Source of the DNA: an uncultured Gammaproteobacteria bacterium
Lineage (GTDB): Bacteria; Patescibacteriota; Microgenomatia; CAYXHB01; CAZYTL01
Length of the DNA: 64,000 nt
Direction of reading: 5' to 3'
NCBI GenBank assembly: GCA_964650355.1
Contig: CAZYTL010000001.1
Span: 149,552-213,551 of the forward strand
The position numbers and the translations under genes were made by a program. Under the pieces are notes generated by a model. That model worked only from the letters and a program-made list of their open reading frames with translations, did not search any database and had not been told where the DNA came from. Each line of letters begins with the position of its first letter. Positions within the stretch are counted from its first letter, which is position 1. This document shows positions 34,304 through 60,636 of this stretch, piece by piece.

Positions 34304-34320
34304 GTTAGATATGCTTCCAC

Positions 34321-34390
34321 AAAAAAAGCGCCGTGAATTACTTCACAACGCTTTAGTAATTATTATAGCAGAGGATCTGAAATCTATCAA
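34321..34390 (-). promoter_or_regulatory. promoter-hairpin cassette A (TTGATA-17-TATAAT, transcription start site (TSS) hairpin AAAGCGUUGUGAAGUAAUUCACGGCGCUUU + U7)
   Basis: -35 at 34385-34390, -10 at 34362-34367, hairpin 34321-34354; holin AUG 17 nt downstream. Confidence 0.55.
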
Positions 34391-37300
34391 AAATGAACGT
34401 CAACCGGATTCTTTTGTTTCAAGGTCCAGGCTGTATTTATCTTTGTTTTGGGTGTCCAATTTGTAGATACTTTTGCCTTATTATCCCAGGAAGTAGATAT
34501 TTTCGTTTTATTGATCCACAATCCCCTGAAAACAATGTCAGGGACCACAAAATTCACCACCACTGGCACCACACTGGCCGTCTCAACTTGTAAATAGGTG
34601 GCGGTGACGGCGGGAATAGAGAAAATTGTTATGGTAGGAGTAACGCTGGCTGTTATATGTCCGGTTGCCGCCGTTACATTTGGGACGGTAAAGGTGGTTA
34701 CTATTGGATTTAATGCCGCGGTTTCTACCTGGACATAAGTGGCCGTGGTCGCTGGAATCGAAAATGTACCTTGCACTGGAGAAGCGCTTGCAGTTTCTAC
34801 CTGACTATAACTCGCTGTAACGGAGGGGATTAAAAATGAGCTGAGGACAGGCGATGCCCCTGCGGTTTCTACCTGGACATAAGTGGCAGTAACAGAAGGT
34901 AAATTAAATATAGTTATTACTGGATTAACTGAAGCATTATAAAGACCCGAATGGGTAGCTGTGACTGAGGGGAGAGAAAAATTGACTGAAACGGCAGATA
35001 AACTAACAGTTTCTACTTGGATATAGGTGGCTGTAACTGAAGGATTGGAAAAATTAATTATTACCGGAGATACCGAAGCGCTTTCACCACTACTTGATGT
35101 TGCCGTAACAGTGGGTGTACTAAAATTAACTATTGATGGGGATAGGCTGGCGGTTTCTACCTGGACATAGGTGGCTGTAACTGAAGGATTGGAAAAGGTG
35201 GTTGTGACTGGCGAAAGATTGGCGGTTTCTACTTGGATATAAGTAGCTGTCATTGATGGATTAGAGAAAGTGACCGCTACCGGGGAAACACTTGCCGTTT
35301 CACCACTGCTTTGTGTCTCCTCACTTCCAACACTGTAAAATGTTGAAGGATTGCTTTGGTTATTATAAATTGTAGTGATTTGATTGCTAGATAAATATGA
35401 AGCAATCACCCGAATTTCATCTAATCCTCCATCATATCTATATGCAGTGGGTGGAGATACCCCCCAAGTCCGTTCTCCAATGTAAATAGAAGTCGTCGTA
35501 TTTGCATCTATAGAAGTAGGCCCGCCTGTTGTTTGATGAATTGTCCCATTATTTATTGAGGCCTCCAATAAACCATTTCCACCATCTCCATCTGCATCAT
35601 ACCGCCCCATCAAAAAGTCCCATTGACCCGTAGTGACGGAATCGCCCGTTGTTTGGACATTATAACCAGTTAATGACTTCCTAACTGCAAAGCGTAATTC
35701 TCCGGCTGGACTTTGACGAGTTACAAGCAAATACCCTCCGCCGCTTGCATCGAAAAAATCAAGAATATCATAGGATGTATTCTGTGGTAAGGTTTCATGT
35801 TTGGACCACATTATAATTGTCAAATCCCCGGTAATTTTAAGATGTCCCGCATTTGCGTTTGACAAAGAAAAATAATCTCCATTGTCATCTCGCTCTAAAT
35901 CCCTACCGTTCCCAACTTTTCCAGTTAAACTATCAATGGTATTGTTGTCAGAAAAATTTGCATTACCAGTAGAATCAATTAAATTATTTCCGCTAGATTC
36001 GTCACCATGAGCAACCAATTTGTAAATGCTAGGCCAAGTATTATCTCTCCCATAAGTGTCGCTGGTTCCATACCCAGTAGCATTTGGGTATCCATAATAA
36101 ACATAGAAATCAGTATCTACGCTTGAAGAAATTGAATCTATCAAAAGGTGAATCTGTCCTGTTTGTCCACTTGTATCAATCTTTACCAAATCATAGGCAC
36201 ATTCAGTTACCCCATCATCTTTGGTAATTCTTATATCATCACCGTCTGCTTGTACATGACTAAAAAAGGCCGACGGCAAATCACTTAAATCCACATAAAC
36301 AGGGTAGTCAGTATCGTCAGCGGCCACCTTTCCATGCTGAATAGTAACCTTAATCCTATATTGCCAATTACTGTTATACCACCCAACCCCGACGCTTGCT
36401 GTTACGCTTGGAAGCGTAAAGGTCACTCCCACCGGATTAACACTGGCAGTCTCCACTTCTTGATAAGTAGCAGTCACCACAGGGAGGCTAAATGTAGTTA
36501 CTACGGCAGCGACGGTAGCCGTGAAGTAAGCTAAGGCTGTAACCAAGGGCAAGGTAAAACTGGTAACCACCGGCGAGACTGAGGCCGAATCAACCTCGTT
36601 ATAGGTGGCCGTCACGCTAGGCACCGTGAAGTTTACCGCTACCGGACTAACACCGGCAGTCTCACCGCCACTTGCTGTATAGGTGGCGTAGATAGACATT
36701 GAATATCCGTCATAATTATTAGTTGGAACAAGGGGGTCTGGAAAAGTGTTGTAGGTTCCAGAATTATAACTTATCAACCTATTCCCAGAAGTAGTAGAAT
36801 CGTACCTCCCAAACCAACCAAGATCTTGATCGGACCACCCAGCTAATGTATATGGAGTACTGTCCACAACAGACGGCTTAGTTCCCGAATAAACTATGTC
36901 CCTCCAACCAGCCGAAGCATCAGTAAAATTATATTCATCTGTTTGTCCGTTAGTAATTTTATCGAAATCTGGATGCTGAGAATATAATTGACCAGTTACA
37001 TTTGCATTTGTCCCCGCATCAGTATATATAGTTAATTTATCAATGGTTCCATTTCCATCAGTGGGCGTATAATCATTTCCACTTCCACACCCTAAATTAT
37101 TTAAACTCCAATTTGAGCCTCCAATAGTCTGATATCCAAACGTAGGATCAACAACTACTGGATAAACCGCATTGTCTAGCCAAGATTTAGGAAGCAATAA
37201 TTTGTGTTCATTTGTATCAGGAAACCAATTCTGATCTGCCCAAGCTTCTTTTCCGTCAGCCGCAATCAACTTTACTCTTTTAGCATTGCCGATCTTGCCC

Positions 37301-38100: not shown

Positions 38101-38101
38101 A

Positions 38102-38596: not shown

Positions 38597-38618
38597 ATTT
38601 TCACCCCCTTTCTCTACT

Positions 38619-38641
38619 AAAAAACCAGCCCTATTGGCTGG
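38619..38641 (-). terminator. intrinsic terminator
   Basis: minus RNA CCAGCC-AAUAG-GGCUGG followed by U6. Confidence 0.55.
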
Positions 38642-38733
38642 TATTAACCTTAACCTATCCGCCTCGTCTCGCCGGTCAAGACAGGTCAACCGATAGGCAT
38701 TTATTTTAATTATTAACTTTATGCGCTTGTGCC

Positions 38734-39177: not shown

Positions 39178-39180
39178 AAA

Positions 39181-39672: not shown

Positions 39673-39748
39673 AAAAAAACGCCGTGAATTATTTCACAAC
39701 GCTTTTTAACTAGATTTATTATATCACAAGACAAAGGTCGCCTGTCAA
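39673..39748 (-). promoter_or_regulatory. promoter-hairpin cassette B (TTGACA-19-TATAAT then hairpin+U7 directly abutting AUG)
   Basis: -35 at 39743-39748, -10 at 39718-39723, hairpin 39680-39707, A-run 39673-39679 touches start codon at 39670-39672. Confidence 0.55.
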
Positions 39749-39750
39749 TA

Positions 39751-40104: not shown

Positions 40105-40163
40105 CTCCTTTGCTTTTCATCCCTGCCCCCACCTCCCAATAGGGGCAGAGTTAAAAGCCAAGA

Positions 40164-40607: not shown

Positions 40608-40695
40608 ATATTTAGTGACTATAACTTTGTGATTATGGTCGTTATATTCACCTCCTTTCCTGAAAAAATGAAATTAGAATTAATTTTTGGGTGTA

Positions 40696-40717: not shown

Positions 40718-40730
40718 GCTAAACTGTTAG

Positions 40731-41950: not shown

Positions 41951-42619
41951 TTATTCACCATGCTCGCGTCGATATTTTTCCCTTGCTGCTTTTGCCTCTC
42001 TCCAGGCTTTAACGCCTTCATCAGTAGTAAAATCAAAGTCTTCATGACGGAGGGGCTTAGCAGGATCGGTGCTGGTTGCATAAGAACCCCTGCTGGTTCG
42101 CTTAGGAGTGGCGGCTTTTATCCGTGCCTCCCGTTCCTCTTTTTCTTTCATGGAAAGAATATAAGGATGTTTAGCTGCTTCCCCTATAGAAATACCCTTT
42201 AACTTCGCCAAGTCTTTGACTTCTGATTTCAGCTCGTCAGACAAATTTAAGGAATTCAGTTCCATGTCTTCAAAACGAGCGTCTAGCTTCTTGTCAATCG
42301 CTTCGTCCGTTAATGGCGTTTCTTTAGGTTTGGTGTTATCCTCCTCCGGCTTATCCTTCGGTTTTTCGGAAGTCTTTTGATTTTTCTGGGCTACTTCCCT
42401 CCAGTTGATCTTTTGCTTGATCGCCCCGGACAACTTTTCATGGTGGGTTTTTTCCCGTTCGACGAGTTTGCCGAGCAGTTCTGAGTCCTCTTCCAGGTCA
42501 AGCTCGAAATCTTCGGCCAGTTTACTTCTCAACTCGTCATTATTGACTTCCTTTTTTGCCTCCTCTTCAGCTTTCTGCTCCTCTGGAGACACCTCGAGGT
42601 CTTTATCTTTTTCGTCCAT
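41951..42619 (-). CDS. scaffolding protein candidate (start revised to MDEKDKD)
   Basis: highly charged Glu/Lys helical protein immediately upstream of capsid; the ORF-track start (42652) lies inside the terminator hairpin loop. Confidence 0.45.
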   Translation of the reverse strand: MDEKDKDLEVSPEEQKAEEEAKKEVNNDELRSKLAEDFELDLEEDSELLGKLVEREKTHHEKLSGAIKQKINWREVAQKNQKTSEKPKDKPEEDNTKPKETPLTDEAIDKKLDARFEDMELNSLNLSDELKSEVKDLAKLKGISIGEAAKHPYILSMKEKEEREARIKAATPKRTSRGSYATSTDPAKPLRHEDFDFTTDEGVKAWREAKAAREKYRREHGE

Positions 42620-42638
42620 AGGACTAAATTTTTTCAAT

Positions 42639-42733
42639 AAAAAAACCGCCATCTGGCGGTATTGTCAAGAGAAGAGAAAGCGTTGTGGCGAACTCTTCCC
42701 CTGACCAAACAGTCAGAGGGTTCACAACGCTTT
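42639..42733 (-). terminator. compound hairpin (cassette C: AAAGCGTTGTG...CACAACGCTTT with inner hairpin) followed by terminator CCGCC-AGAU-GGCGG + U7
   Basis: 11-bp perfect outer IR 42677-42687/42723-42733; inner IR 42698-42720; terminator 42639-42659. Confidence 0.5.
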
Positions 42734-43218: not shown

Positions 43219-43263
43219 GTGAATCTGTTAGATCCACAACGCTTTGATAAATACTTTATAACA
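43219..43263 (-). promoter_or_regulatory. promoter-hairpin cassette D (TGTTATAAA, hairpin GUGGAUC-UAACA-GAUUCAC abutting AUG)
   Basis: -10 at 43255-43263; half-motif CACAACGCTTT at 43236-43246. Confidence 0.45.
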
Positions 43264-43899: not shown

Positions 43900-43962
43900 A
43901 TAAAGCGCCGGACAATAAATCACAACGCTTTTTTTGAATCAGTTTCTATTTCATTATATCAC
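43900..43962 (-). promoter_or_regulatory. promoter-hairpin cassette E (TGATATAAT overlapping TerL stop codon)
   Basis: -10 at 43954-43962; hairpin variant AAAGCGUUGUGAU...GGCGCUUU at 43908-43940. Confidence 0.45.
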
Positions 43963-45641: not shown

Positions 45642-45689
45642 AAAAAAAGCGCCGTGAACTATCTCACAACGCTTTATTAAATTATAACA
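45642..45689 (-). promoter_or_regulatory. promoter-hairpin cassette F upstream of terS (TGTTATAAT; hairpin+U7; AUG 16 nt later)
   Basis: -10 at 45681-45689; hairpin 45646-45675. Confidence 0.55.
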
Positions 45690-45712: not shown

Positions 45713-45786
45713 TGCGCTCCTCTAGACTTGAACTAGAATCTAAACGTTCGATACACGTTTGCTTTATCCAATTAAGCTAGGAGCGC
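45713..45786 (-). tRNA. phage-encoded tRNA, anticodon AUC (nominally Asp, unusual A34)
   Basis: hand-folded: 7-bp acceptor GCGCUCC/GGAGCGC, U8, D-stem GCUU/AAGC with loop AAUUGGAUA (G18G19), anticodon stem AACGU/ACGUU with loop GUAUCGA (U33, R37), variable loop UAGAU, T-stem UCUAG/CUAGA with T-loop UUCAAGU, discriminator A. Confidence 0.6.
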
Positions 45787-45876: not shown

Positions 45877-45942
45877 CAAAGCGCGTGGTATTTCACAGCG
45901 CTTTTAATAATTCCAGTATATTATTTGGGGACCAGCTGTCAA
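45877..45942 (-). promoter_or_regulatory. promoter-hairpin cassette G2 (TTGACA-16-TATACT then AAAAGCGCUGUGAAAUACCACGCGCUUU)
   Basis: -35 at 45937-45942, -10 at 45915-45920; hairpin 45877-45907. Confidence 0.45.
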
Positions 45943-45964
45943 GATCGATTGAATGTGCTATAAT
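45937..45964 (+). promoter_or_regulatory. plus-strand promoter of the island (TGcTATAAT extended -10), overlapping the divergent minus promoter
   Basis: TGCTATAAT at 45956-45964; start codon of first island gene at 45999. Confidence 0.4.
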
Positions 45965-45998
45965 TTTTGTTAAGACATATAAAAATCCTCCTTGTTAT

Positions 45999-46367
45999 AT
46001 GAATTGGTTAATCAATCATAGTGAGTGGACTTTTCCAATTCTTTTAATATTAGCTCCAATTGGGGTATTTATTCTTTACCGCTTTTTTGAGTGGGAAGAA
46101 AAAATAACTACAAAAACTATAAACTCCATTGAAAAAAACTTAAATAGTAATCTCAAAAATTTACCCCAAAATAAATTGTCTATAATTATAGTTCTAATTA
46201 TTAGTATTTTATTGATAACTTTTTATTGGTTTGAGTGGCGTCCTTCTCAAGTTAAAGCTTATTGTAATCAGTACACCCGCTGGAATGAAAATGGACCTAA
46301 AGTCGATCCTCGTTCCAGATTTTATGATATCTACTACAAAGATTGCCTCCACTCCAAAGGACTCTAA
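45999..46367 (+). CDS. 2-TM membrane protein (moron candidate; start revised to MNWLINH)
   Basis: two hydrophobic helices; opposite strand to all phage genes; the ORF-track N-terminus covers the promoter. Confidence 0.4.
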   Translation: MNWLINHSEWTFPILLILAPIGVFILYRFFEWEEKITTKTINSIEKNLNSNLKNLPQNKLSIIIVLIISILLITFYWFEWRPSQVKAYCNQYTRWNENGPKVDPRSRFYDIYYKDCLHSKGL

Positions 46368-46875
46368 AATTAAGTTGTTCAAAACTGTTACTTTTGTTAT
46401 CTTCGTTATTGGTGTAACGACGTTTAACTATGCAATCTGGAAGAAATCTTCACTCTCTCAAAATATAGAGAGCTGTCCAATTAATAAGCTTGGTATTGAA
46501 TTATTGCCGACCAACATTCAAAACAGTAAAACCATCATCCAACTCATAAAGAAAAACTGTTATTTAGCTTCAACCGCTTTTGAAGATTTTACTCACGATG
46601 GAAGAAAAGACATTTTATTAACCGGAATAGGATATGGATGTGTAAGTTGTCATGCCCGTGATATATACATTCTAAATAATAATAAAATTATTTTTTCATA
46701 TACTGGGGATGATGCCAATATAAAGCAAATTCCAGACGGATTCTTGTTAACAGAACCCATCCGTAAGACCGAGGAGCCATATTGTTGTCCTTCTCAATCA
46801 ATAAGTACCGAATATGATTATTCTCCACAAACAAATAGCTTTATTAAAACCCAGTCAATTATTATAGACAATTAA
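46324..46875 (+). CDS. membrane-anchored Cys-containing extracytoplasmic protein (moron candidate)
   Basis: TM helix then domain with YGCVSCHARD and EPYCCPSQ; +1 frame relative to upstream gene with 44-137 nt overlap (possible frameshift). Confidence 0.35.
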   Translation: MISTTKIASTPKDSKIKLFKTVTFVIFVIGVTTFNYAIWKKSSLSQNIESCPINKLGIELLPTNIQNSKTIIQLIKKNCYLASTAFEDFTHDGRKDILLTGIGYGCVSCHARDIYILNNNKIIFSYTGDDANIKQIPDGFLLTEPIRKTEEPYCCPSQSISTEYDYSPQTNSFIKTQSIIIDN

Positions 46876-46877
46876 TC

Positions 46878-49800
46878 TCAGTAAGAAATTTTTAAGCCCA
46901 ATTCTTTCAATACCACCGGATCAATTCCCGCAACCACCTTGTTAAGATATTGCTTTCCCAATGTGTCTATATCCTTTGATTTGACCCTATTCACCCCTCG
47001 ATTATAGGCAACGATTGCCTTCGCATAATCTCCTTCAAAAGTCTTCAAGTTTTGCTTGATAATTTTAGTTGCATAAACAATCGAAAAAACAGGATCAAGC
47101 GCCTGTTCTTGGGTCACGTTAGGATGAGCATTGCTATTTAATTGAGCAATTCCCACATCCCAGGATCCATCGCTATTCTGATTTTTAGCACCAGGATTAA
47201 ATCCGCTTTCACTGAAAAAGATCGACGCCATCACTGCCGGCACCACGCCTGAGTTTTCAGCAGCCGAATTAATCAATCCTCCAATCTGCTCATTCGGCTT
47301 TTTTCTTTCTTTCTCCTTAAATCCGGAGACTATAGCCGATGTAGGAATTGGCTCCGGATTCTTGCTCGATTGTTGAACCTCTGCGGCGGCCTCCTGACTA
47401 GCGATGTAATTCGGGGCTCCATCCGGCCACTCCTTCCCTGTTACCTCCGGATACATTTTCTGCCAGGCTGCCAACGCCCGATCCTTTTCTTCCTCAGTGT
47501 CAAAAATAGAAGTCTGACCATTGGGATAAGAAACCTCAATCTTCCCATTGAGTAGATCTCTTACACGATAGGGATCCTCATCAGTTTTTTCAGTCAATCC
47601 TTCTGGCTTGGCTGTAGGACTTACCCAGGTTACTGGTTCGCGCTGAAATAATCTTGTGATTGCCCGCTTAACCTTCTCCCAAAAAGAAGGTTTGGGATTC
47701 GCCTTTTCTCTCTCCCAATCTGCCTTAGTCCAATTCTCAGCCGCTAATACATCCGGGACAATCTTTGCGTGGGCAGACTCCAGGAAACCTAAAAGTAAAT
47801 TCTGTTCATCTGTGGGCGCCTCTCCTACTTCTCTCCGGATCCGTTTAAGCGCCTCATCGCTAATTACCTTATTTTTACGTGCGGTATTCAACAGATCATC
47901 ATATTGCTCCGGTGTCAAAGATTTCTTATATAGCTTCATTAATTCTACTTTCTCGTCATTCGTTGTCGCCTCGATTAAACTATCCATTTCTTGGCTCACT
48001 TCACCCTTGATCAATCCAATCTTAAACTTCTTTAGCGTATTTGTCCGCCGGCGTCTATCCGCCTCAGTAAGGATTTTGTCCCCTACAACCTCCCTCACCA
48101 GTTCCTTTTTAAGTCGATCTACCGATTCCGGATTTTCCTTTCCCCGTTTAATATAATCAGCCAGAATCTTTCTTTCCTTCAAAACCCGCTGAGCAGCCTG
48201 TTTATCTAATTCTTTCTTGATTACCTGCTCTGACTCCTTCATTCCATAATCCGTGGACTTAATCGCCCGATTGACTAAAGGAATATTTTTCAATAAATAA
48301 TCAAGTGTGGTATCTGTTTCGTCTGAATAGGTAGTAAACTGGGAGAAACCCAACTCATTCGTTGTCCATTTAATCATCTTCATATACATCGGTAATCCTC
48401 CAGCCTTCCAGGTAATATCGTCAACTACTGGCCGGCCCCTGTAGTTATCGTAAGGATTCTTGCCCTGTAATACGTTCATCCATGCGCCGCCAATTTCCCA
48501 AAGCGGGGTCATTGAGGGAATGTAACCGGATAATAAGTAACCAATTTGTTCCGGTTTTTTGAGGTCATGGTTAAGATAAGTTCCGAGCTTCCAGACAACA
48601 GCAGAGAAGAGCCGTCCGGTTTCGTCCTGGGGGATCCGCCAGTAAGTCGCCTTGCCATTCTTCCTCAAACCCAGAGGGACAATGATATAGTTTGTCTTGT
48701 CATATTCAGTCGCTTTATCTAAAATCTCCTTCACCGTAGCCCCGAAAAGCCCAGCAATCCCAGCCAGCATTAACATTTTAGGTAAAATATCTACTTGAAA
48801 AGTCTTCATCCAGTATCCGGACCGAGTTTGGGGGTTGGTTGCCAGCTCAAAGTCAGTCCGGAGAGCCTGAAGCGCTACATTAGAAAATACAAATACATTA
48901 TTATCCACCACCTTCTGATTCCCGCCATCTATAAAATTAGGAGTACCTACATAGTTACGGGTAATAAATCCGGCCTCCCTTCCGCTTAACTCTCGCTTCT
49001 TGGTCAATTGATAACCTGCTACCTTACTGGTAGTTTCAAACGTAGATCCCACCAGCTCGATTCCATTAAGAATTTTTCGAACCGGTTTTAACATCTGCTC
49101 TTTAAGCCCGCCCTGTTTAACGTCGTCAGTCACGGGGCGGTAACGCTTGATGATTGGCTTTAACCACTCCGCCTCATTCGCAGTGGTATCAAACTTAGTA
49201 AATGGTGTAGTAAATGCCCGATAGTCTAATGCCTCTCTTACCAACGGATCAATTACGTCATTCTGGTAACGGTAAGCCCCCGGAATTGCCTTTAGATACT
49301 CAGATATAAATTCAATAATAGATAATCCCTTTTTATTACCCACCTGTGGGAGTATTGCGCCTAAATTTTTATATGTCCTCTTGGCGTCTCTGATAATATT
49401 GGCGTAAAATCCCCAGGAAATATTGTAAGTAGTCACTACCGGCTTAAACAGTCGATTAAATGCCCCAGATGCTTTGACAATATTATGAATTTCACCCGGC
49501 AGATAAAAGTCAAACATTTGTGCGATATAGGGATCCACGTCATAGGCAATTCGTTTACCATCTTCAAATAATTCCAACGGGACTCGATTTTTAACTTTCT
49601 TCCACCCCACCCGCACACCTTTAGGTTTAACTGGCTTGCTCTTGGAAATATCTGTTGGGAAATTTTCAAGTAATTGATCAACAACCGCCCTCTTGCCTTT
49701 CTGTAGTTCGATTTGCTCTATCAATGCCGCCGTCTTGAGAATTGATGAAGTAGCTGGATTTTCTATTGGCTTTAGTGTTCCTATTGCTTCTTTAATTGCC

Positions 49801-52800
49801 GGCGTTACATAGTTATTATGGATATACTCAATTACTTGGAATGTGGCGTAAGTGTCTTTATTCGGCTTGGCTGTCTCATTAAAAAATTTCTTGCTGTAAA
49901 CTCCGGTCTCGGCCGCCTGCTCTACCACACTGAAGGTCAATTCCCTGAACTTCCCGGCTGATTGCTGAAGAATATTAAATTGTTCATCGCCAATTCCCCG
50001 CTTAGCTAAATGCTTCTTAAAATAATCTAGTGTCTCTTGTGCGTATTCGCCTTGTAAACCATATGGGTTGGCAATATCCTTACGATCTCCAAGCTCCCTT
50101 TCAAGCTTAAGCAGAGTTCCCAAATCATCCTCAGTCATTCCTAATTGATCTAAGGGTGAAGTGATGTCTTTAATAACTGAATCCAGATAGAGATAAACCG
50201 CATTTCTCCTCATCTGCATTTCCTCTAGCTGCATCCGAAGTCGTTGTTTGGGAGATATAATAATGCCGTAGTCTTTTGAAATTGAGTCTACCTTGCGATA
50301 AATAGGATCAAAGCGGGTAATGTGCTGTCTCATAAAGCCCGCCCAAACAGACATTACTCTTTCCATTATCGACTGTCGGGGAAGCTTCTCTTCCATGATT
50401 CCCTTACGGATAGCCTTTGCCTCTGCAAAACCCTCGTAGATGGCATTTAGCCGCTTCTCCTGCACTACATCAGCTGGCTCGTTAAGCAAATCCCAAATTA
50501 CAAACAAATTTTCTTGTACTGCTGGCTTACGGTCTAAATATTCAATAAAGCCCTGCCAGAACTTAGGAGCTTCTGTCTGTAATCGCTTGGGATCATTAAA
50601 TAAGACACTGATCGCATCGGCGTATAATTCCTTTGAAGATCGACGGTATTTATCGTATTTACTTCCTCCCTTACGTTCAAATTCTCCCCGCCATTTTGCA
50701 GATAAATCCATTAACTCATTTCTAATCGCCTTGTTGGTTGATAAATTTCCATAAGTTCCGGCTATATGTTTTTTTAATGTTGCCAATCGCCCCAATAAAT
50801 TACCCCGCGACAACAATTCGTCGGGTAAATAATCAACCAAATGACCAATCTCATGTGCCAAAGTTTTAGTAGCCGTCTCAATATCTGAAAAAATATCAGC
50901 CCTTAATTTAATTTTTCCACCTTCCTTACCGATAAAAACCCCCAAAGCTTTTTGTCCCCCTCTCGTTCCGACTTGTTTCTTAACTACTGGATATTTATTC
51001 ATCAATTCCCTTGTGAGTCCAACCATCTCTGGAAATGGAACTATCTTCACTTCACTCTGAATCTTTGTCAAATTCGGTAATGATTCAAAACCACCAATAG
51101 CAGCAGCTGAAGTCGTGCCTTTTTTCACTAGAGTTTCTCCTTTCGCCAATGCCTCAACCTGCTTCATTAAAACGTTTTCACTTATTCCCAACGCTGTCGC
51201 AACCTCATCAGAGGCCAGTTGACCATTTTTACCCTCTGGAATATGTTCACGGAATAATAAACCAGTCTTCTTACTTTTCTTCTCAGCCAAAAGTCTAAAC
51301 ACTTTCACTAAATACTTAACATCATCGGCAGAATTTCCATACTTAGCGTATTTATCCACAACTCCTTCCTTTTGTGCTCGTTTCATTTCCAACTCTCTCT
51401 CTCGATTTACTGCATTTAATAGTTTTTCATAAGCTGGCTTGATACCTTCAATTCCTGAATATAACTCCTGGGCAGCCGCCAGATCTCCGCTATCAATCGC
51501 TTCCTTTACCATCTCTAGTTCAGCCTTGGTTTCTTCCGGTAAATTCTTCAATAATACCTCTACTGTTTCTGATGGGGGAGGGGCTTCCTTTAATTCTTTT
51601 GCTGTCTGCTTAATTTTATCTGATAACTTACCTGTTTCTAAAAGATTCTTATTATTGGGGTAAATTACCAACTTGGAATCAGTTATCTCTCCTTTTAATA
51701 CGCGTAGCCTTTCTTGTAGATAATCCCTTTGCTGATTAATATCTTCACTTTCTTTTCCTGATAACTCATCCAACTTTTTCTGAATAGCTTCTGGATCAAT
51801 TGAATTAAGAACAGATTCACCCAATCGCCGTTTTTTTATTTCTTGTTTAATTATCTTAGGTACTGAGGGCTCCACAATTTCCACTCTCAATGCAGTCTCA
51901 TCTTCCGTGGGTGATATTTTTATATTTTTATTGTCCCGTTGCGCTTGAAGTGCCGCCTGGAATACCTGCTTGCCAGTATCGCCCTTAATTTCATTTTTCG
52001 CCAACATCTTCATTGCCTCATCCGGTGTCAATTCTATGGTTGACAATGCCTTTACCACTTCCTCTTGTTGGGGTGTGCGCTCTTCGCGGGGTATCTCAAT
52101 TGCCTTCTGAATCTTTTCTTTTATTTGTTGACCAACTTCTTCCGGAGTTGATTTTTTTCCCGTCAATCCAATCACCCCGGAAACTGTCACATCTGAGAAA
52201 CCACCAAGCAATGCCCCAACCACCGCCGATTCCTTAACCCCCTCAAATAAATCCTTGTGTTTGTTATAAGTTTGAGCCACGGCGTTTTGGACAATTTGTT
52301 GAAGTCCCTCCGTGACCCCTTCCATGCCGGACTGAATCGCCACATCAACCATCCCCTCTGTAATCATTTTTAGTAATGGCTTTTTAACTGTGGATCCTAA
52401 GCCTGTTTTCCTGATTAGTCTTTCTAAGGGAATCACGTCTAGTGCGCCCATGATGGATCCACCAATCATGGCTAAGGGCATTGCTTCATTATCGGAAAGT
52501 CCTGCGGTTCTTGCTTCTACATAAACATCATTGGCGTTCAATCCATAAGAAGTAGATAAACCGACCTCCGTAGCCAATATTGGGTTCTTCGTCACTACCT
52601 CTGTAGCCAAAGCCAGACCATAGCTAACAGCCATCTGGGGTACATTGTATGCGGCCATTTCTAAATAACCCTGCAATCCTGTCGAAGGCGTATAGGTCTT
52701 TTTGAATTCCTCCTCTGCCTTTTGTTGTTTTGTATATCCAGACTCCTTAAGCTGTCTAGCATATTCAGGTGATCCAATGATTGGACCCTGGATGGTAAGT

Positions 52801-53186
52801 GCTGATTCTTTCGGCTGATATTTTTCGCCACCAGGCAAAATCTTTAATGTTGTCTTAATAAAAGCTCTATTAATTTTCCTCTGAATGTCTGTTAAATTAG
52901 CCAGGATAATTCCGCCGGCAGTCTCAAACTGCCCAGGCGTGGCTTTCAACCCACCAACAAAAGATTGTCCCAGTTTTTGAAGATTCAACCCCTCAATTGT
53001 ACCCGTTTCCTGTGGTCCAGTTTCTATTTTATGTATTGGCTCCGTGGGTATAATCGGTCTATTTGTACTGGGCAGGAATTTGACAATTTCCTCATGTGTT
53101 GGAATTCCAAGTCGTTGGGTACTTAAAACCTGGTTCTTTTTAAGTTCCTGTTCTATTTGCTGGTGAGTGGGAAGGGTGAAGGGCAT
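46878..53186 (-). CDS. giant virion protein, tape-measure/ejection-like, with zincin HEIGH motif and C-terminal lytic transglycosylase (SLT) domain
   Basis: 2102 aa; Gly-rich and coiled-coil N-terminal third; TLAHEIGHLVDY; C-terminal FSESGFNPGA...DVGIAQLN...AYNRG SLT motifs. Confidence 0.6.
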   Translation of the reverse strand: MPFTLPTHQQIEQELKKNQVLSTQRLGIPTHEEIVKFLPSTNRPIIPTEPIHKIETGPQETGTIEGLNLQKLGQSFVGGLKATPGQFETAGGIILANLTDIQRKINRAFIKTTLKILPGGEKYQPKESALTIQGPIIGSPEYARQLKESGYTKQQKAEEEFKKTYTPSTGLQGYLEMAAYNVPQMAVSYGLALATEVVTKNPILATEVGLSTSYGLNANDVYVEARTAGLSDNEAMPLAMIGGSIMGALDVIPLERLIRKTGLGSTVKKPLLKMITEGMVDVAIQSGMEGVTEGLQQIVQNAVAQTYNKHKDLFEGVKESAVVGALLGGFSDVTVSGVIGLTGKKSTPEEVGQQIKEKIQKAIEIPREERTPQQEEVVKALSTIELTPDEAMKMLAKNEIKGDTGKQVFQAALQAQRDNKNIKISPTEDETALRVEIVEPSVPKIIKQEIKKRRLGESVLNSIDPEAIQKKLDELSGKESEDINQQRDYLQERLRVLKGEITDSKLVIYPNNKNLLETGKLSDKIKQTAKELKEAPPPSETVEVLLKNLPEETKAELEMVKEAIDSGDLAAAQELYSGIEGIKPAYEKLLNAVNRERELEMKRAQKEGVVDKYAKYGNSADDVKYLVKVFRLLAEKKSKKTGLLFREHIPEGKNGQLASDEVATALGISENVLMKQVEALAKGETLVKKGTTSAAAIGGFESLPNLTKIQSEVKIVPFPEMVGLTRELMNKYPVVKKQVGTRGGQKALGVFIGKEGGKIKLRADIFSDIETATKTLAHEIGHLVDYLPDELLSRGNLLGRLATLKKHIAGTYGNLSTNKAIRNELMDLSAKWRGEFERKGGSKYDKYRRSSKELYADAISVLFNDPKRLQTEAPKFWQGFIEYLDRKPAVQENLFVIWDLLNEPADVVQEKRLNAIYEGFAEAKAIRKGIMEEKLPRQSIMERVMSVWAGFMRQHITRFDPIYRKVDSISKDYGIIISPKQRLRMQLEEMQMRRNAVYLYLDSVIKDITSPLDQLGMTEDDLGTLLKLERELGDRKDIANPYGLQGEYAQETLDYFKKHLAKRGIGDEQFNILQQSAGKFRELTFSVVEQAAETGVYSKKFFNETAKPNKDTYATFQVIEYIHNNYVTPAIKEAIGTLKPIENPATSSILKTAALIEQIELQKGKRAVVDQLLENFPTDISKSKPVKPKGVRVGWKKVKNRVPLELFEDGKRIAYDVDPYIAQMFDFYLPGEIHNIVKASGAFNRLFKPVVTTYNISWGFYANIIRDAKRTYKNLGAILPQVGNKKGLSIIEFISEYLKAIPGAYRYQNDVIDPLVREALDYRAFTTPFTKFDTTANEAEWLKPIIKRYRPVTDDVKQGGLKEQMLKPVRKILNGIELVGSTFETTSKVAGYQLTKKRELSGREAGFITRNYVGTPNFIDGGNQKVVDNNVFVFSNVALQALRTDFELATNPQTRSGYWMKTFQVDILPKMLMLAGIAGLFGATVKEILDKATEYDKTNYIIVPLGLRKNGKATYWRIPQDETGRLFSAVVWKLGTYLNHDLKKPEQIGYLLSGYIPSMTPLWEIGGAWMNVLQGKNPYDNYRGRPVVDDITWKAGGLPMYMKMIKWTTNELGFSQFTTYSDETDTTLDYLLKNIPLVNRAIKSTDYGMKESEQVIKKELDKQAAQRVLKERKILADYIKRGKENPESVDRLKKELVREVVGDKILTEADRRRRTNTLKKFKIGLIKGEVSQEMDSLIEATTNDEKVELMKLYKKSLTPEQYDDLLNTARKNKVISDEALKRIRREVGEAPTDEQNLLLGFLESAHAKIVPDVLAAENWTKADWEREKANPKPSFWEKVKRAITRLFQREPVTWVSPTAKPEGLTEKTDEDPYRVRDLLNGKIEVSYPNGQTSIFDTEEEKDRALAAWQKMYPEVTGKEWPDGAPNYIASQEAAAEVQQSSKNPEPIPTSAIVSGFKEKERKKPNEQIGGLINSAAENSGVVPAVMASIFFSESGFNPGAKNQNSDGSWDVGIAQLNSNAHPNVTQEQALDPVFSIVYATKIIKQNLKTFEGDYAKAIVAYNRGVNRVKSKDIDTLGKQYLNKVVAGIDPVVLKELGLKISY

Positions 53187-53197
53187 AATTCATAAAA

Positions 53198-54679
53198 TCA
53201 CAACGCCTGAAGAACCTCATTTCGAATGTCCTCCGGCACGTTAGAAATAGTCGCCTGCCCGTTATTAATTGCATTAGCCCACGTCTGTATCTCTGATTCA
53301 TTGTTGGCATTGGCTGCATAACTAGTCCGATATTGCTTTTCCAACTCCTTAACCATCGCCGGGCCAAAAGATATCCTCGACGCGCTCTGGGCTGCCGTTA
53401 AATACTCTTGGAATGTTGGTGCACCCGCCTTAATCTGTAGTGCTGCCAACACCTCATTTCTTATTTCCTCTGGCACCTGAGAAATCGTAGCTAATCCATT
53501 ACGTACCGCATATACCCAGGTCTGCACATCACTGTCTGTACTGACTGTACCGTCTTTGGGAACCCTGTAATAATGAACAGTTCCTCTTGAATCAATAAAA
53601 CTTCTTAGTTGGCTGGCCGGCACGGTTGAAGGATTAACCACCGCCACCCCACCCTCCAGAGTTATTTTATTCGCCTGCTCTTTTACTTCATTGGCATACT
53701 GAGCATTAGCCAATTTAGAATTGATCGTCTCGACTGAATCATTTAGTGATACTCCCCCCTGGGCCATCAATAAAGCAGTGTTCGGATCCACCATTAATTC
53801 CTTAATCATGTTGACTGCTGCCTGGGCATTAGTAAGGTCTGTCTTTTTAAGATTAAGCTGTTCTTCAGCCAATTTTTTAGATTCATTATCCAAACTAACA
53901 ATATCCTGACGATTCAAATTCAAAATTGTCTCATAATAGGCAATCTGGTCCTGTCTATCCGCGGTAATTGCCCCCACCGATCTATCAATCATATTCTCAG
54001 CCACCGCTATTTGGCCGTTCCTGGCATTAATTACTGCCTCTATAACCCCTGCCCGGGCAGCCACATCATCCATTGTCTTTTGGATCCGGGGATTCCGGAC
54101 CGCCGCCAATCCTGTAATTTCCTTTTGTTGTTTGATCAGATCATTTCCCTCTGTTAATAATTGATCCAATTCATTAACTAATTTTTGATTTTCCTCAAAA
54201 TTCTGATTAATATACAAACTCTCCCGCTGTGTCTTCTCTAAGTCTGCCCTAAATGGCTCAGTCAATGGCTTAACTTTCTCTAAAGTTTGCTGCTCCTTTT
54301 GTCTCGCCGCCTCCATTTGTGCATTATTTAAGTCCTGTTGCTGTTTTAGGCTGTCCTCCAACGCCTTTCTTGCCGTATCTAATTGACCCTGTAAACTTGT
54401 GACATATGACTGATTCGCTCCGGAGCTTAATGGTACGCTGACCGGCGTCTGAATCTGGTTTGCCTGATATTCTTGCTGTTGTTGCTGTACGTATTGAACA
54501 TTCGCCGGATTAGTCTGCGCAATTACCTCTGCGGAGGTCTGTTTCCCTGGCTCGTATTCACCTGAAGCCAATAATTGACCATTTAGATATCGCCTTGAGT
54601 CGTACCACTTTCCCTCTTCGGGGGCAACAATCTTTCCATTGTCTAGTCTAATTTGATTTCCTGAAATTAATGTAGCCAT
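53198..54679 (-). CDS. coiled-coil protein with duplicated C-terminal ~30-aa motif
   Basis: 493 aa; QTWVYAVRNGLATISQVPEEIRNEVLAALQ and QTWANAINNGQATISNVPEDIRNEVLQAL. Confidence 0.35.
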   Translation of the reverse strand: MATLISGNQIRLDNGKIVAPEEGKWYDSRRYLNGQLLASGEYEPGKQTSAEVIAQTNPANVQYVQQQQQEYQANQIQTPVSVPLSSGANQSYVTSLQGQLDTARKALEDSLKQQQDLNNAQMEAARQKEQQTLEKVKPLTEPFRADLEKTQRESLYINQNFEENQKLVNELDQLLTEGNDLIKQQKEITGLAAVRNPRIQKTMDDVAARAGVIEAVINARNGQIAVAENMIDRSVGAITADRQDQIAYYETILNLNRQDIVSLDNESKKLAEEQLNLKKTDLTNAQAAVNMIKELMVDPNTALLMAQGGVSLNDSVETINSKLANAQYANEVKEQANKITLEGGVAVVNPSTVPASQLRSFIDSRGTVHYYRVPKDGTVSTDSDVQTWVYAVRNGLATISQVPEEIRNEVLAALQIKAGAPTFQEYLTAAQSASRISFGPAMVKELEKQYRTSYAANANNESEIQTWANAINNGQATISNVPEDIRNEVLQAL

Positions 54680-54729
54680 AAAAAAGCGCCGTGGATATCC
54701 ACAACGCTTTTAATAAATATATTATAACA
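54680..54729 (-). promoter_or_regulatory. promoter-hairpin cassette I (TGTTATAAT; hairpin+U6 directly abutting AUG)
   Basis: -10 at 54721-54729; hairpin AAAGCGUUGUGGAUAUCCACGGCGCUUU at 54683-54711; A-run touches start codon 54677-54679. Confidence 0.55.
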
Positions 54730-54733
54730 GCTA

Positions 54734-55561: not shown

Positions 55562-55563
55562 AT

Positions 55564-55878: not shown

Positions 55879-55880
55879 AA

Positions 55881-56168: not shown

Positions 56169-56170
56169 AT

Positions 56171-57622: not shown

Positions 57623-57632
57623 AATTCACCTC

Positions 57633-59411
57633 CTAAGTCGGGGCAGGCAACTGGGCCTGTACTATCTCTGGATTCTTATTCGACAACGCTCCGGCTTGCT
57701 CTCTTTGGGGCAGTTGGGTCTCCGCAGGCGCCGTTTCTCTCCTGGGAGGGATAGGGATTCCCCTCGATCTGTAAATCTGGTCCAGGATCCAACCAATCCT
57801 CGCCGGATCCTTTTCTAATCCGATTAGATTTATCAAATCCTGTATCTGGTCCTGTATGTCGCTATTTTCACCAGTAATCGTTATAAACAACCTTGGCAAT
57901 ACATTTTTCCAGATTTCCTTAGAATTCTTAATTACTGGGTCTATCCGCCGCAATTCATCCAGCTTCTCCGCCTTAATTGTCTTAGCTATTTCTAGAGTAT
58001 GAGGACCGATTTTAACTAGATTTTGTGCATACCAACTCTCCGCCATAATTTCCCTGAATTGGTCTAAAATATCAGTGTCACCCACCAATCTGAAAATATC
58101 TTCACCCCTTAAATACTTCACCAACTCCGGCAATACCCACTCTCTGAATACCCGCTTATAAGGCAATGCCAGCTTTTGTCTTAACAACGCAAATAATCGT
58201 CCGGCGTTCTGATCAATCAATGCTCCCAACCTAAATGGCGTTCCGGAGGGCAATGATTCACCCCGGACCACCTCAAAAGAATTAGACAGTCTGTCCGCGT
58301 CGTTAATCAATCGGTTCCAGTCCGCTATCAGCTGATCCATCGCCTGCATCCTCACATCCAGCTGAGCCAGGTCCTCAGTGATCACCACGTCGCCATTATC
58401 TAAATCGGCTCGGATATTCTGCAACACAGTGGGATCCTTACTTCTGAAAATCACCTTGGAAGCCCATTCCAGCCCTGTAGCCAACTGATTCCCGATTTCA
58501 TTCGCTCTGATCTGGTGGTCAAATAGCAACTCATACATTCCTACCCGCCAAAATCTACCCTCGTAGCGTCCCCGGTGGGCATAGATATAATAATCAGACA
58601 TTTTTCCATCTAACTTCTCGGCGAACAACGTATACTTCTCCCCCGCCCCACTCTTCCTCAAACCCGCCAGGATTACCTTTGCTAAAAAGTGTTTATTTTC
58701 ATCTCCCCTCCCTTCCTCATTCACCTCATTAAACTCCTTTTCCGAAACTTCCCCGGTAAACTCAAAAATCTCATAAACCTTACCCGTCTTTTCAATGGGT
58801 GTGGTTTTATCAGCAGCCTTAAAAAACTTATTCCCTAATTCTTTAATTACCTCATCCACATGATTCCAATCCGACATAGATTTCAGCTCCGAAGCAATCA
58901 TCTCATGTCTTTCAATTAGGTCGGTGTTGTCAATCGACCTGGCTGTTTGATTAGTTATGTAAGCGTTCAGTGAATCTACCATCTCATAGCCGCCATCAAT
59001 CTTCTTAAACCCCACGTTTCCAGAAGTCACAAATTCCTCTACCGCCGCTTTTAATTTTTCATCTTCACCGTTTTCTGCCATCCATTCCTTCAGTTTGGCG
59101 TTAGAAATAAACACCGCTGGAAAATCCTTTTGAGGATTACGCGAAAAAATCAAGATGTGCTTGGTATCAAACCTTAAATTCTTCACCTCGCTGTCTGCCC
59201 GGTTAGAGATAATGTCAAAATAATAGTTGTAAGATAAATCCGCATTAATCTTGGTCCCCGACAAGTCACGATTCTTAAACCTATTTATCCTGTTAATTAG
59301 CTTATATTGACTAAAAAACACCCTCTCAGACAATTCAATATTCCGAGAGGTATAGTTCTCAATCTCGGATTCGATTCTGGAATATAATGTGGATTGGTTA
59401 GTCTTTGGCAT
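57633..59411 (-). CDS. large virion protein (possible portal)
   Basis: 592 aa acidic with Pro/Gln-rich C-terminus; call rests on size and context only. Confidence 0.25.
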   Translation of the reverse strand: MPKTNQSTLYSRIESEIENYTSRNIELSERVFFSQYKLINRINRFKNRDLSGTKINADLSYNYYFDIISNRADSEVKNLRFDTKHILIFSRNPQKDFPAVFISNAKLKEWMAENGEDEKLKAAVEEFVTSGNVGFKKIDGGYEMVDSLNAYITNQTARSIDNTDLIERHEMIASELKSMSDWNHVDEVIKELGNKFFKAADKTTPIEKTGKVYEIFEFTGEVSEKEFNEVNEEGRGDENKHFLAKVILAGLRKSGAGEKYTLFAEKLDGKMSDYYIYAHRGRYEGRFWRVGMYELLFDHQIRANEIGNQLATGLEWASKVIFRSKDPTVLQNIRADLDNGDVVITEDLAQLDVRMQAMDQLIADWNRLINDADRLSNSFEVVRGESLPSGTPFRLGALIDQNAGRLFALLRQKLALPYKRVFREWVLPELVKYLRGEDIFRLVGDTDILDQFREIMAESWYAQNLVKIGPHTLEIAKTIKAEKLDELRRIDPVIKNSKEIWKNVLPRLFITITGENSDIQDQIQDLINLIGLEKDPARIGWILDQIYRSRGIPIPPRRETAPAETQLPQREQAGALSNKNPEIVQAQLPAPT

Positions 59412-59437
59412 ACGCTAAAAATTAACTTGGTCTGTAG

Positions 59438-60214
59438 TTAAAGACCATATCTTTTAATGGATTTTCTTTTTAATTTCAGCCTGGGTTTAACATCCATTGC
59501 CCGCCTCTGAAAATGCTCTACCATTGACTTTCTCATTGCTTCCTTTTGTATCCTCAATTCAGCAGATTTTTTGGTCATCCCGTTTGCAATTGCATAATCT
59601 AACGCTGCCCCCAGGGATAAAAACCTATGATACAGAGAGCTAAATCCAGGCTTCTTTGTCGTATCTGATGGTATGAAGTAGTTACCTCCCCGCTGAATTG
59701 AAATCTCTACTCCGGCAGAGTAACCGTAGTCAGGCATGGGGACCGGGAAAATAGCGTTACCTTCCCTGTAAAAACTATCCGGAGATCCGGTTGACTTCAA
59801 TTCGCTATCGCTAAATTCACGCTTCAATTTGGGGGTTAAAATCACAAAATCGCCTTGGCTATTTTTCATCCGCAACTCATGGATTACCAATGCCGAATCG
59901 GGAATTGAATAATGATCCTGATTGCCTACCAGGGTCGCGATAGCGCATGGAAGGTCTGTGTTATTGAGATCATCCCACTTCCAGTTAGGATCCGCCTTAA
60001 ACATTTCTGCAATAGCCTCATCCCAGACGTTATTTACATTCCTCGTACGGTCATCCAAAGAGTACTCGGAGTTAAATATAGCACTATTGCCAAACAATAA
60101 GAAGTCAATGTCAGCAACCAATGAAATAGATTTATCGGATGGATTATATTGCACAGTAATTACCCTCCTTTCTTTCGATATAAAAATTATCGTATTCTTT
60201 ATGGCACGCAGCAC
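59438..60214 (-). CDS. hypothetical protein with basic C-terminal tail
   Basis: 258 aa; C-terminal RLKLKRKSIKRYGL. Confidence 0.25.
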   Translation of the reverse strand: MLRAIKNTIIFISKERRVITVQYNPSDKSISLVADIDFLLFGNSAIFNSEYSLDDRTRNVNNVWDEAIAEMFKADPNWKWDDLNNTDLPCAIATLVGNQDHYSIPDSALVIHELRMKNSQGDFVILTPKLKREFSDSELKSTGSPDSFYREGNAIFPVPMPDYGYSAGVEISIQRGGNYFIPSDTTKKPGFSSLYHRFLSLGAALDYAIANGMTKKSAELRIQKEAMRKSMVEHFQRRAMDVKPRLKLKRKSIKRYGL

Positions 60215-60593
60215 ATAATCTTAACCAGTCGCTCAAATCTCTTTTATACTGTCCACTCTTGTTAGCCCAATGAATATTATGTCCCTTTAACTCTGAACAA
60301 CCACATCGCTCACAGGTGGTGGGTTTTCCTAAAATTGCCCCAATCCACATATGAACAGCTCTATATTTAGCCTTAATTCCAAGCCATCTATTGGTGTTTT
60401 TCCCTCTTAATCCCAATTTCGCATTTCTCATTTTAAGCTTCGTTTCGTCTGAATGTTTTTTCCCGTAAAAACTATTTCTTTCGCCTACCCGAAGTTTGGC
60501 GGCACAAGATCTGGAACACGTTTTTCTCTTTCCTCCCAATGATGGATGAATATCAAAGTCTTTTTTACAAAATTTACATTGAAGTCTAACCAT
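60144..60593 (-). CDS. HNH homing-type endonuclease with NUMOD3 motif (start revised to MVRLQCKFC)
   Basis: GKKHSDETKLKM (NUMOD3), C-x2-C...HNIHW...CAACH HNH core; the ORF-track first AUG lies inside the -10 box. Confidence 0.7.
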   Translation of the reverse strand: MVRLQCKFCKKDFDIHPSLGGKRKTCSRSCAAKLRVGERNSFYGKKHSDETKLKMRNAKLGLRGKNTNRWLGIKAKYRAVHMWIGAILGKPTTCERCGCSELKGHNIHWANKSGQYKRDLSDWLRLCAACHKEYDNFYIERKEGNYCAI

Positions 60594-60636
60594 AAGCGTT
60601 GTGGAATTTTGCACAACGCTTTGATTCATTATAACA
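60594..60636 (-). promoter_or_regulatory. promoter-hairpin cassette upstream of HNH (TGTTATAAT; perfect 10-bp palindrome abutting AUG)
   Basis: AAGCGTTGTG-GAATTTTG-CACAACGCTT at 60594-60622; -10 at 60628-60636. Confidence 0.5.

Follow-up and report, generated by a model that had tools for sequence, protein, structure and literature searches.

Short units in which a stem-loop and a promoter stand in front of a gene are known from T4-like phages. These promoter-early stem-loops (PeSLs) consist of a stem-loop, a sigma70 promoter, a Shine-Dalgarno sequence and ATG, and are found in hyperplastic early regions, in association with indels (Arbiol 2010; Comeau 2014, PMC4122927). The present analysis concerns a repeated element in a prophage on contig CAZYTL010000001.1 (positions 149,552 to 213,551 of the forward strand; this whole stretch of 64,000 nt is termed the window). 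The element, termed the cassette, is composed of a predicted sigma70-type promoter, an 11-nt sequence (the box, AAAGCGTTGTG), a 3′ arm that can fold back on the box to form a hairpin, and a start codon. It resembles the PeSLs in that a near-consensus sigma70 promoter and a stem-loop form a short unit that is repeated in intergenic spaces directly 5′ of open reading frames (ORFs). It differs in the order of parts, i.e. promoter, box-hairpin and ATG with no Shine-Dalgarno sequence, and in its location, which is mostly at syntenic late/structural sites (one HNH insertion adjoins a cassette). In addition, only the 5′ stem arm is conserved here, and the stem is flush with the AUG.

The stoperators of L5/Cluster A phages are DNA sites that bind a known repressor as a monomer, and they occur throughout the genome (PMC9283540; PMC6550527). 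The box has in common with them an asymmetric motif of 11–13 nt, a large number of copies, a location at promoters and in short intergenic spaces, an orientation tied to transcription, and phage-specific variants. Here, however, the sites are found in late regions only and no candidate repressor was found in the window. Each site also lies just after a -10 sequence and has a complementary arm that pairs with it in RNA fashion (G·U pairs).

In phage T7, as Dunn and Studier reportedly described in 1983, class II/III promoters are followed by RNase III sites, e.g. phi3.8/R3.8 and phi6.5/R6.5. The T7 promoters are those of the phage's own RNA polymerase, the RNase III substrates are long and have internal loops, and a normal ribosome-binding site follows. 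T7 and the prophage both show a promoter, an RNA hairpin and a gene, repeated along the genome, with initiating and read-through transcripts sharing the same 5′ structure. The prophage differs by its host-type promoters, short variable stems, conserved 5′ arm and an AUG that abuts the stem. In the rpoS mRNA a self-inhibited leader is activated by DsrA and RprA in an anti-antisense manner. As in that case, a leader hairpin lies by the start codon and could be opened by a trans RNA complementary to its upstream arm; such a system predicts an invariant target arm and a variable masking arm, as found here. The difference is that there would be about nine targets, each with the same 5′ box, and that the proposed regulator would be bistable and carry a box of its own.

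Late mRNAs of the Thermus phage phiYS40 are leaderless. In Thermus phage P23-45, middle and late genes have extended -10 promoters of the host RNA polymerase (PMC5758890), and leaderless genes with a -10 sequence adjoining the ORF have been described (PMC12340547). Many predicted extended -10 promoters of the host polymerase type are likewise present in the family described here, and its sister phages have TGnTATAAT close to ATG. The cassettes differ by a structured leader of 19–56 nt with a conserved box before the AUG, and no gp39- or gp76-like factors were identified. No described family fits all features, and from its sequence the element appears to be a repeated phage cis-regulatory cassette. 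The initial annotation of this region considered the architecture undescribed for a phage. This is broadly fair for the exact order of parts, with PeSLs, L5 stoperators and the T7 promoter plus RNase III site as known related cassettes.

A search of the window with AAAGCGTTGTG, of the kind proposed at that time, gives 11 matches at ≤1 mismatch in 64 kb, compared with 1.12 expected (standard deviation 1.0); none of 100 shuffled sequences reached 11. Nine matches are minus-strand box copies (Table 1), and the remaining two are perfect return arms of the copies that start at 60622 and 42733. All 11 are intergenic and within 34–61 kb, i.e. in the prophage, and the minus-strand copies are oriented as the phage genes. 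No box was found in the host part of the window. The eight units listed in the initial annotation are all present where it placed them; a ninth copy, a long form at 42733–42636, is to be added to its count of at least eight.

The sigma70-like promoters that had been assigned to the units represent a real consensus pattern. All six minus-strand TGnTATAAT sites of the whole window lie 5–21 nt upstream of a box copy. A distance of about 7 nt from the -10 to the hairpin had been given; the hairpin is indeed downstream of the -10, with a gap of 5 to 21 nt that is not uniform. It should be noted that promoters and transcription starts were assigned by consensus match only, and that RNA structures are predictions backed by comparison. 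With this reservation, the view is supported that each unit is a sigma70-type promoter followed by a structure meaningful only as sense-strand RNA.

The prophage extends from an integrase gene at 31110–32123 (plus strand) to the end of the window or further, and its minus strand has genes for lysis, tail, capsid, terminase and portal-like proteins. A total of 559 homologues of the capsid protein were found (E ≤ 1e-20); many are from metagenomic contigs of ~40 kb. Loci of related phages (labelled with L-numbers; L001 is MW202577, accession MW202577.1) were gathered by capsid, terminase and portal searches and by DNA pattern, and were retained only when they showed protein homology to this phage; most are partial contigs. 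A pattern of -10 plus box yielded 120 loci in IMG/VR, mostly single chance matches, and only loci with capsid/portal homology were kept. The comparison set consists of 14 related genomes with a capsid or portal identity of 60%–78%. From the pattern matches 39 short cassettes were curated by hand, 7 from the window and 32 from relatives.

A search of IMG/VR with the exact two-arm pattern gave no match, which was the first hint that the 3′ arm is not conserved. In the related phages an extended -10 promoter is followed by AAGCGTTGTG, and the sequence after the box varies by gene and by phage. Across the 14 genomes the box, i.e. the 5′ arm, alone is invariant, and the 3′ arm is gene-specific. The box is exactly AAAGCGTTGTG in 21 of the 39 cassettes. 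The -10 is an exact TATAAT in 28 and is TG-extended in 30, and the gap between -10 and box has a mode of 6 nt (5–9 nt in 30/39). The box is downstream of the -10 in all 39 cassettes, never overlaps the -35 or -10, and is probably transcribed in every one of them; transcription would start at the box or a few bases before it.

Leaders are 19–56 nt long, and their folding is stronger than that of leaders in which the non-box part was shuffled (median z = -3.5; z < -2 in 28/39). The last pair of the hairpin is 0 nt from the start codon in 24 cassettes and ≤3 nt in 37, and the start context is ATGG in 26. No recognisable Shine-Dalgarno sequence was found in the window cassettes. The 3′ arm may pair with the whole box, with GCGUUGU, with GUUGUAA, or with GUGA only; loops range from 3 nt to >30 nt, and stems have 4–18 pairs (median 9) in variable register. 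The initial annotation described a conserved 13-bp hairpin, usually followed by U6–7. This fits cassettes A, B, F and I (12–13 bp), not the other copies, and in relatives only the 5′ arm of the hairpin is conserved. A start codon was also said to follow each unit. This holds for most units, the exception being G2, which precedes a structured RNA and a tRNA.

Most cassettes are syntenic and stand ahead of core genes: the genes for the terminase small subunit (TerS), p493, p258 and the scaffold protein. For example, TerS has a box cassette in L011, L012 and L013, and orthologues of the 493-aa protein are also cassette-led (L011 1895, L153 4565, L055 1634, L077 2080). No box was found in early regions, i.e. 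in 10 kb of L149 or L150 or in the window at 60.7–64 kb. From these sequences the cassette appears to be the standard 5′ end of late transcription units in this phage family.

Evidence that the structure is formed in RNA comes from a comparison of the two strands. The sense RNA is predicted to be more stable than the antisense in 29 of the 39 cassettes, and in 23 of the 32 from outside the window (Wilcoxon p = 2.4e-4). G·U pairs make up 47 of 386 predicted pairs. The right arms alternate among CACGGCGC, CACAACGC, CACAGCGT and CATAACGT, and the U-A or U·G pairs are kept in the sense RNA only. Cassette D offers an example of such a change. It has a hairpin of its own that differs from the others, in which the box pairs through GTG alone (GUGGAUC/GAUUCAC); in the D ortholog of L012 (5634) this is GUGAAUC/GAUUCAC, a change between A-U and G·U. 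Thus a covariation check in related phages, which had been proposed earlier, shows 3′-arm changes that keep sense-RNA pairs. The strand asymmetry noted originally is present in 6 of the 7 short window cassettes, where the minus-strand RNA is the more stable; the palindrome of the HNH cassette is symmetric. The RNA-level structure on the transcript that had been deduced from this asymmetry agrees with the comparison outside the window, with the G·U pairs, and with the antibox-matched box variants described below.

A palindromic operator bound by a dimeric protein is disfavored by the variation in arm spacing and register, and the variable loop length likewise points to a hairpin and not to a palindrome of fixed spacing. 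A CRP-like site (TGTGA-N6-TCACA) was considered and discarded, as copies and relatives show spacings anywhere from 4 to 11 nt or more. A promoter for a phage RNA polymerase was also considered and rejected: the spacing between -10 and box varies, the -10 sequences fit the host consensus, and the complete MW202577 genome has no gene for an RNA polymerase. Taken together, it is highly probable that the unit acts as an RNA-level leader hairpin of late operons.

Distant or sister phages that have no box show TGnTATAAT 6–11 nt ahead of the ATG of late genes. MW202577.1, a complete genome of 39.6 kb with a capsid protein 52% identical to that of the prophage and no box, has at least seven TGnTATAAT sequences 7–11 nt from a late-gene ATG (plus strand: 15907, 21727, 25269, 31573, 35274, 37165; minus strand: 2921), and its late mRNAs are predicted to be leaderless. 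Further junctions of the leaderless type are present in L016, L017, L163, L168, L169 and L170. TerS is leaderless in L170, and the p258-like gene is leaderless in L163 and box-led in L150, L055, L077 and L149. The window cassettes, with leaders of 19–56 nt, do not place the -10 at 6–9 nt from the start as leaderless genes do; matching genes in the sister phages L001, L017, L163 and L170 show this spacing. Since matching genes are either leaderless or box-led, the box-hairpin appears as a module of about 20–50 nt placed between the presumed transcription start and the AUG.

The integrase gene shows a related arrangement on the other strand, as had been reported in the initial annotation. A hairpin lies 1 nt before its ATG (Table 1), and its sequence is unrelated to the box. 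The shared layout with unrelated sequence suggests that the hairpin design is general in the phage and that the box marks the late set. Flush hairpins were also considered as a host-wide feature and rejected as such; the host genes in the window have none comparable to those of the cassettes.

The ninth copy differs from the others. It is a long form of ~95 nt that contains a box, an inner hairpin, a perfect antibox, a CU-rich strand and an intrinsic terminator. It lies upstream of the scaffold gene, and homologous elements are found at the same place in relatives. Searches with a covariance model show the long form in 15 genomes, of which L013 has two copies, and gave none in MW202577 (L001), L016, L017 or L170. 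Two mutually exclusive folds can be drawn, and both show covariation among 16 distinct sequences. In fold S1 the box pairs with the antibox around the inner hairpin; 88% of cells are paired, 15 of 25 pairs show compensatory change, and the covariation score is 0.32 (shuffled 0.21). In fold S2 a 16-bp helix places the antibox in a loop of 15–18 nt; here 92% of cells are paired, 20 of 22 pairs show compensatory change, and the score is 0.62 (shuffled 0.29). The values for both folds are from a larger alignment, which was fitted to S2. A smaller alignment gives the same covariation outcome. S1 and S2 are close in energy, and which of them is the minimum-free-energy fold differs between genomes. 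The covariance models of Rfam 15 detected only tRNAs over the region and matched neither the cassettes nor the long form; a literature search with the motif string returned unrelated primer sequences only. The long form is thus a well-supported candidate for a structured RNA new to Rfam, as judged by its strong covariation.

The antibox follows the variants of the box in each phage. L011 has GGCG in the box and CGCC in the antibox, L013 has AACG and CGTT (in both copies of its long form), L014 has GTA and TAC, and L167 has GCGCTGTG and CACAGTGC. The long form lacks a cis box of its own in L015 and L167 and has a deviant one in L013, L018 and L149, and in these phages the antibox still complements the boxes of the cassettes. 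The two L013 copies, at 9147–9243 and 14951–15040, both have the antibox CACAACGUUUU, which fits the cassette box variant AAAACGUUGUG; their cis boxes (AAAAUG..., AAAGCG...) differ from that variant.

These features lead to the following proposal. A host sigma70-type promoter, usually with an extended -10, would direct transcription from at or near the invariant box, AAAGCGUUGUG in the RNA. The gene-specific 3′ arm would fold back on part or all of the box, giving a leader hairpin that ends 0–3 nt before the AUG. The hairpin would work in RNA by packing the added leader against the AUG, and in this way may set the translation and the 5′-end stability of mRNAs that would otherwise be leaderless. 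The invariant box would serve as a common handle by which one phage-specific partner acts on every late operon at once. The likeliest partner would be the antibox in the 15–18-nt loop of the bistable long form, and its pairing with the box would open the leader hairpin. The concerted variation of the box in each phage suggests a phage-specific reader rather than a universal component of the host, and an RNA that pairs in trans is favored by three features together: the target arm does not vary, the masking arm does, and the antibox is conserved most of all.

The leader hairpin with the box as shared handle and antibox RNA as its likeliest reader is the preferred explanation as a whole, held tentatively. 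As to the reader alone, an RNA is the first candidate, short of an even chance, and a DNA-binding protein is possible; the remainder falls to other kinds of reader. The furthest step is doubtful. In it the long form would be a bistable master riboregulator whose antibox pairs with the box of every late mRNA, opens or remodels the leader hairpins, and so switches the translation or stability of the late regulon at once; start at the hairpin-capped leaders would be a "pseudo-leaderless" type of translation initiation in a host nearly without Shine-Dalgarno sequences.

Several observations weigh against the proposal. The window hairpins are predicted to be very stable (-13 to -18 kcal/mol) and have tetraloops only, so a trans antibox RNA would have no obvious toehold and no net energy gain. 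A single DNA-binding protein that recognizes both box and antibox as DNA sites would be expected to give the same covariation. L168 and L169 have the long form and no cassettes in the 12–21 kb sampled, and in these two phages the cis box of the long form co-varies with its own antibox. In some cassettes the gap from -10 to box is 10–21 nt, and hence the box is not always at the 5′ end of the RNA. Four window hairpins resemble strong intrinsic terminators. Finally, the promoters are consensus matches, and translation from an AUG flush with a stable helix is a prediction.

If the proposal is true, late genes are coordinated by way of a shared 5′ leader in a widespread group of uncultured phages of ~40 kb. 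The usual arrangement is different, with one late promoter and an activator or antiterminator. Genes that are leaderless in one phage and hairpin-capped in another would then be a natural comparison for ribosome start without a Shine-Dalgarno sequence at a helix-abutted AUG. The box can serve as a simple marker for late operons and their promoters in this phage group, and the two-state antibox-loop RNA, found in 15 genomes and with no Rfam match, is a new structured-RNA candidate.

The explanation that survives best besides the RNA-read leader is a DNA operator of the stoperator type, which is possible though given a lesser chance. The box would be an asymmetric site for a repressor or late regulator at +1, silencing about nine strong promoters, including that of the lysis operon, in the lysogen. 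The antibox would be an inverted copy of the site, and the 3′ arm would have been acquired secondarily, to fold the inserted leader out of the way. An asymmetric 11-nt box in many copies, with a single orientation relative to transcription and in short intergenic spaces, is in keeping with such a system, and the L5 pattern is alike (>20 asymmetric 13-mers, oriented according to the direction of transcription; PMC9283540). The box varies in concert within each phage and is alone invariant in sequence, whatever its RNA pairing state. The element is integrated beside an integrase gene, a related integrase is found at the same position in L013, and a lysogen would need its consensus promoters silenced. 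However, an operator alone explains neither the 3′-arm complementarity nor the sense-strand G·U bias nor the flush end at the AUG. The position of the box, downstream of the -10 and off both promoter elements, also speaks against an operator, as does its confinement to late regions, since L5 sites are found genome-wide, also at the early lytic promoter. The window, past whose end most of the early region lies, shows no candidate repressor, and no protein family specific to box-bearing phages was found in the partial sampling of genomes.

An intrinsic terminator or insulator, as suggested in the initial annotation, is unlikely. The hairpin would end the upstream transcript and attenuate its own, and late expression would depend on antitermination as in lambda pR'-tR', or it would be a stabilizer of the upstream mRNA 3′ end. 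Cassettes A, B, F and I do have a GC-containing stem of 12–13 bp with U6–7, and a scan calls A and F terminator-like; the long form, too, is followed by a genuine conserved terminator ahead of the scaffold and capsid genes, and it alone among the units has promoter, leader and terminator before structural genes. Yet only 5 of the 39 cassettes have a U-run after the hairpin (the four window copies and L012 16822), and most relatives have ATG directly after a stem of 4–9 bp. Termination is therefore not the conserved role, and in this phage four copies may have it in addition. A conserved terminator, with stem and U-tract in 4 of the 9 window copies, was rejected for this reason, as was a terminator at the 3′ end of a unit before the next promoter, given that the hairpin is downstream of the -10 in 39/39. 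A hairpin between promoter and gene would end the cassette's own transcripts, and termination does not explain why the 5′ arm alone is invariant or why the AUG is flush with the hairpin. The lambda system has one late promoter, together with a Q-binding element, a promoter-proximal pause, a downstream terminator and the Q gene; here there are about nine units, most without a terminator, and a search that was not exhaustive identified no Q- or N-like gene.

It is equally improbable that the hairpin is mainly a processing site, at which a host or phage endoribonuclease would cut at the 3′ foot to give leaderless mRNAs from the AUG, in the manner of T7 promoter plus RNase III or of Cas6/Csy4-type enzymes. 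In 24 of 39 cassettes the hairpin runs right up to the start codon, which is in keeping with this, and so are the leaderless counterparts in sister phages and a host in which Shine-Dalgarno sequences are nearly absent and some genes have TATAAT-N7-ATG. The stems, loops and register are, however, too variable for a structure-specific nuclease, and most stems are shorter than the roughly two helical turns typical of RNase III substrates, so that an RNase III site, also among the roles first proposed, does not qualify as a conserved function. No nuclease candidate was identified except the HNH DNA endonuclease. A recombination cassette like the PeSLs, which are repeated composite motifs of terminator and promoter by which T4-like phages undergo shuffling (PMC4122927), with the units as short homologies for module swapping and regulation as a by-product, is very improbable: an HNH gene lies between a cassette and the gene it precedes in relatives, and some cassette-led genes are poorly conserved (p163, a 163-aa protein, is found in one relative only), but most cassettes are syntenic ahead of conserved core genes, their parts are in reverse order to those of PeSLs and lack a Shine-Dalgarno sequence, and RNA-level selection on the 3′ arm would be superfluous for recombination.

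Table 1. Cassettes and related features of the window (positions in window coordinates; ATG, position of the start codon)
Feature	Position	Strand	Promoter	Box and structure	Downstream
Cassette HNH	60594..60636	-	TGTTATAAT 60636-60628	box AAAGCGTTGTG 60622-60612; hairpin 60622-60594, return arm a perfect palindrome	ATG 60593
Cassette I	54680..54729	-	TGTTATAAT 54729-54721	box 54710-54700; 12-bp hairpin 54710-54683 + U-run	ATG 54679 (493-aa protein)
Candidate degenerate box	53185..53209	-	no clear -10	CAGGCGTTGTGA (GGCGTTGTGA); no hairpin; not confirmed as a copy	overlaps stop codon of 493-aa gene; 14 nt before ATG of 2102-aa gene
Cassette G2	45878..45942	-	TTGACA-N16-TATACT 45942-45915	variant box AAAGCGCTGTG 45904-45894; bulged hairpin to 45878	no ORF start; non-coding leader with ~100-nt structured RNA and terminator, then tRNA
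Cassette F	45642..45689	-	TGTTATAAT 45689-45681	box 45675-45665; 13-bp hairpin 45675-45646 + U7	TerS ATG 45624
Cassette E	43900..43961	-	TGATATAAT 43961-43953; -10 to box gap 21 nt	box 43931-43921; hairpin 43931-43902	ATG 43899 (86-aa conserved protein)
Cassette D	43219..43263	-	TTGACA-N18-TATAAA	box 43245-43235; hairpin end 43219	ATG 43218
Long form	42636..42733	-		box (start 42733), inner hairpin, perfect antibox CCACAACGCTTT (CCACAACGCUUU), CU-rich strand, intrinsic terminator CCGCCAGATGGCGG+U7	scaffold gene
Cassette B	39673..39748	-	TTGACA, TGATATAAT 39726-39718	box 39705-39695; 13-bp hairpin to 39677 + U-run	ATG 39672 (163-aa protein)
Cassette A	34321..34390	-	TTGATA-N17-(TG)TATAAT 34390-34362	box 34354-34344; 13-bp hairpin 34354-34325 + U7	ATG 34303; 86-aa protein gene, then lysin-like 354-aa gene
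int	31052..31112	+	TACAAT-N7	hairpin CCUAGUAGCU...AGCUACUAGC (-14.5 kcal/mol)	ATG 31110, 1 nt after hairpin

In relatives, a cassette of the HNH type is directly ahead of the adaptor-like p258 gene. In the window an HNH endonuclease ORF (60144–60593, minus strand) begins directly at the hairpin foot, and its end is overlapped by p258. The HNH gene looks inserted because the cassette of the relatives directly precedes p258, which suggests insertion of a homing endonuclease beside the cassette.

The listed start of the scaffold ORF, 42652, falls within the terminator of the long form and is probably wrong; an ATG near 42620 is a more likely start. The segment at 42600–42636 (minus strand), between terminator and scaffold start, and its equivalents in L011, L012, L017 and L018 have an extra small hairpin and a conserved start region, TAGTCCTATGGA.

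A phage tRNA is present between cassettes G2 and F (45713–45786, minus strand; Rfam, 54 bits), which ARAGORN assigns to Asp with an unusual anticodon, AUC. In the leader upstream of it (45877–45795, minus strand), UUGUGUUGCUC is complementary to the loop (GAGCAACACAA) of a terminator hairpin, GCGCCCU...AGGGCGC+U7. The tRNA leader and the long form have a like design, i.e. a 5′ segment that pairs with the loop of a 3′ hairpin.

Few data bear on the host. An alignment search with the capsid matched only two metagenome-assembled genomes, and their labels are in conflict (Gammaproteobacteria and Candidatus Shapirobacteria); the terminase large subunit (TerL) as sole query gave no match in the genome collection. 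In the host part of the window (1–31000), Shine-Dalgarno sequences are nearly absent, and TATAAT is found 7–8 nt ahead of ATG at a few genes (6751, 29989, 28374). IF-2 of the host is only 469 aa long, and its NusA has no close relatives in the protein collection. Among the relatives of a HerA-like early gene of the phage none has the box; early regions are mosaic, and this gene is therefore of no use for tracing a regulator.

The gene at 46878–53186 (minus strand) encodes a protein of 2102 aa with an HExxH metalloprotease-like motif and a C-terminal region resembling lytic transglycosylases. It is probably an internal virion protein that is ejected. The sole plus-strand TGnTATAAT of the window, at 45956, diverges from cassette G2 and faces two plus-strand ORFs of ~160 and 214 aa (45936–46875). 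Both ORFs are membrane-like, gave no Pfam match, and lie within the minus-strand late region, where the two-ORF unit looks like a moron.

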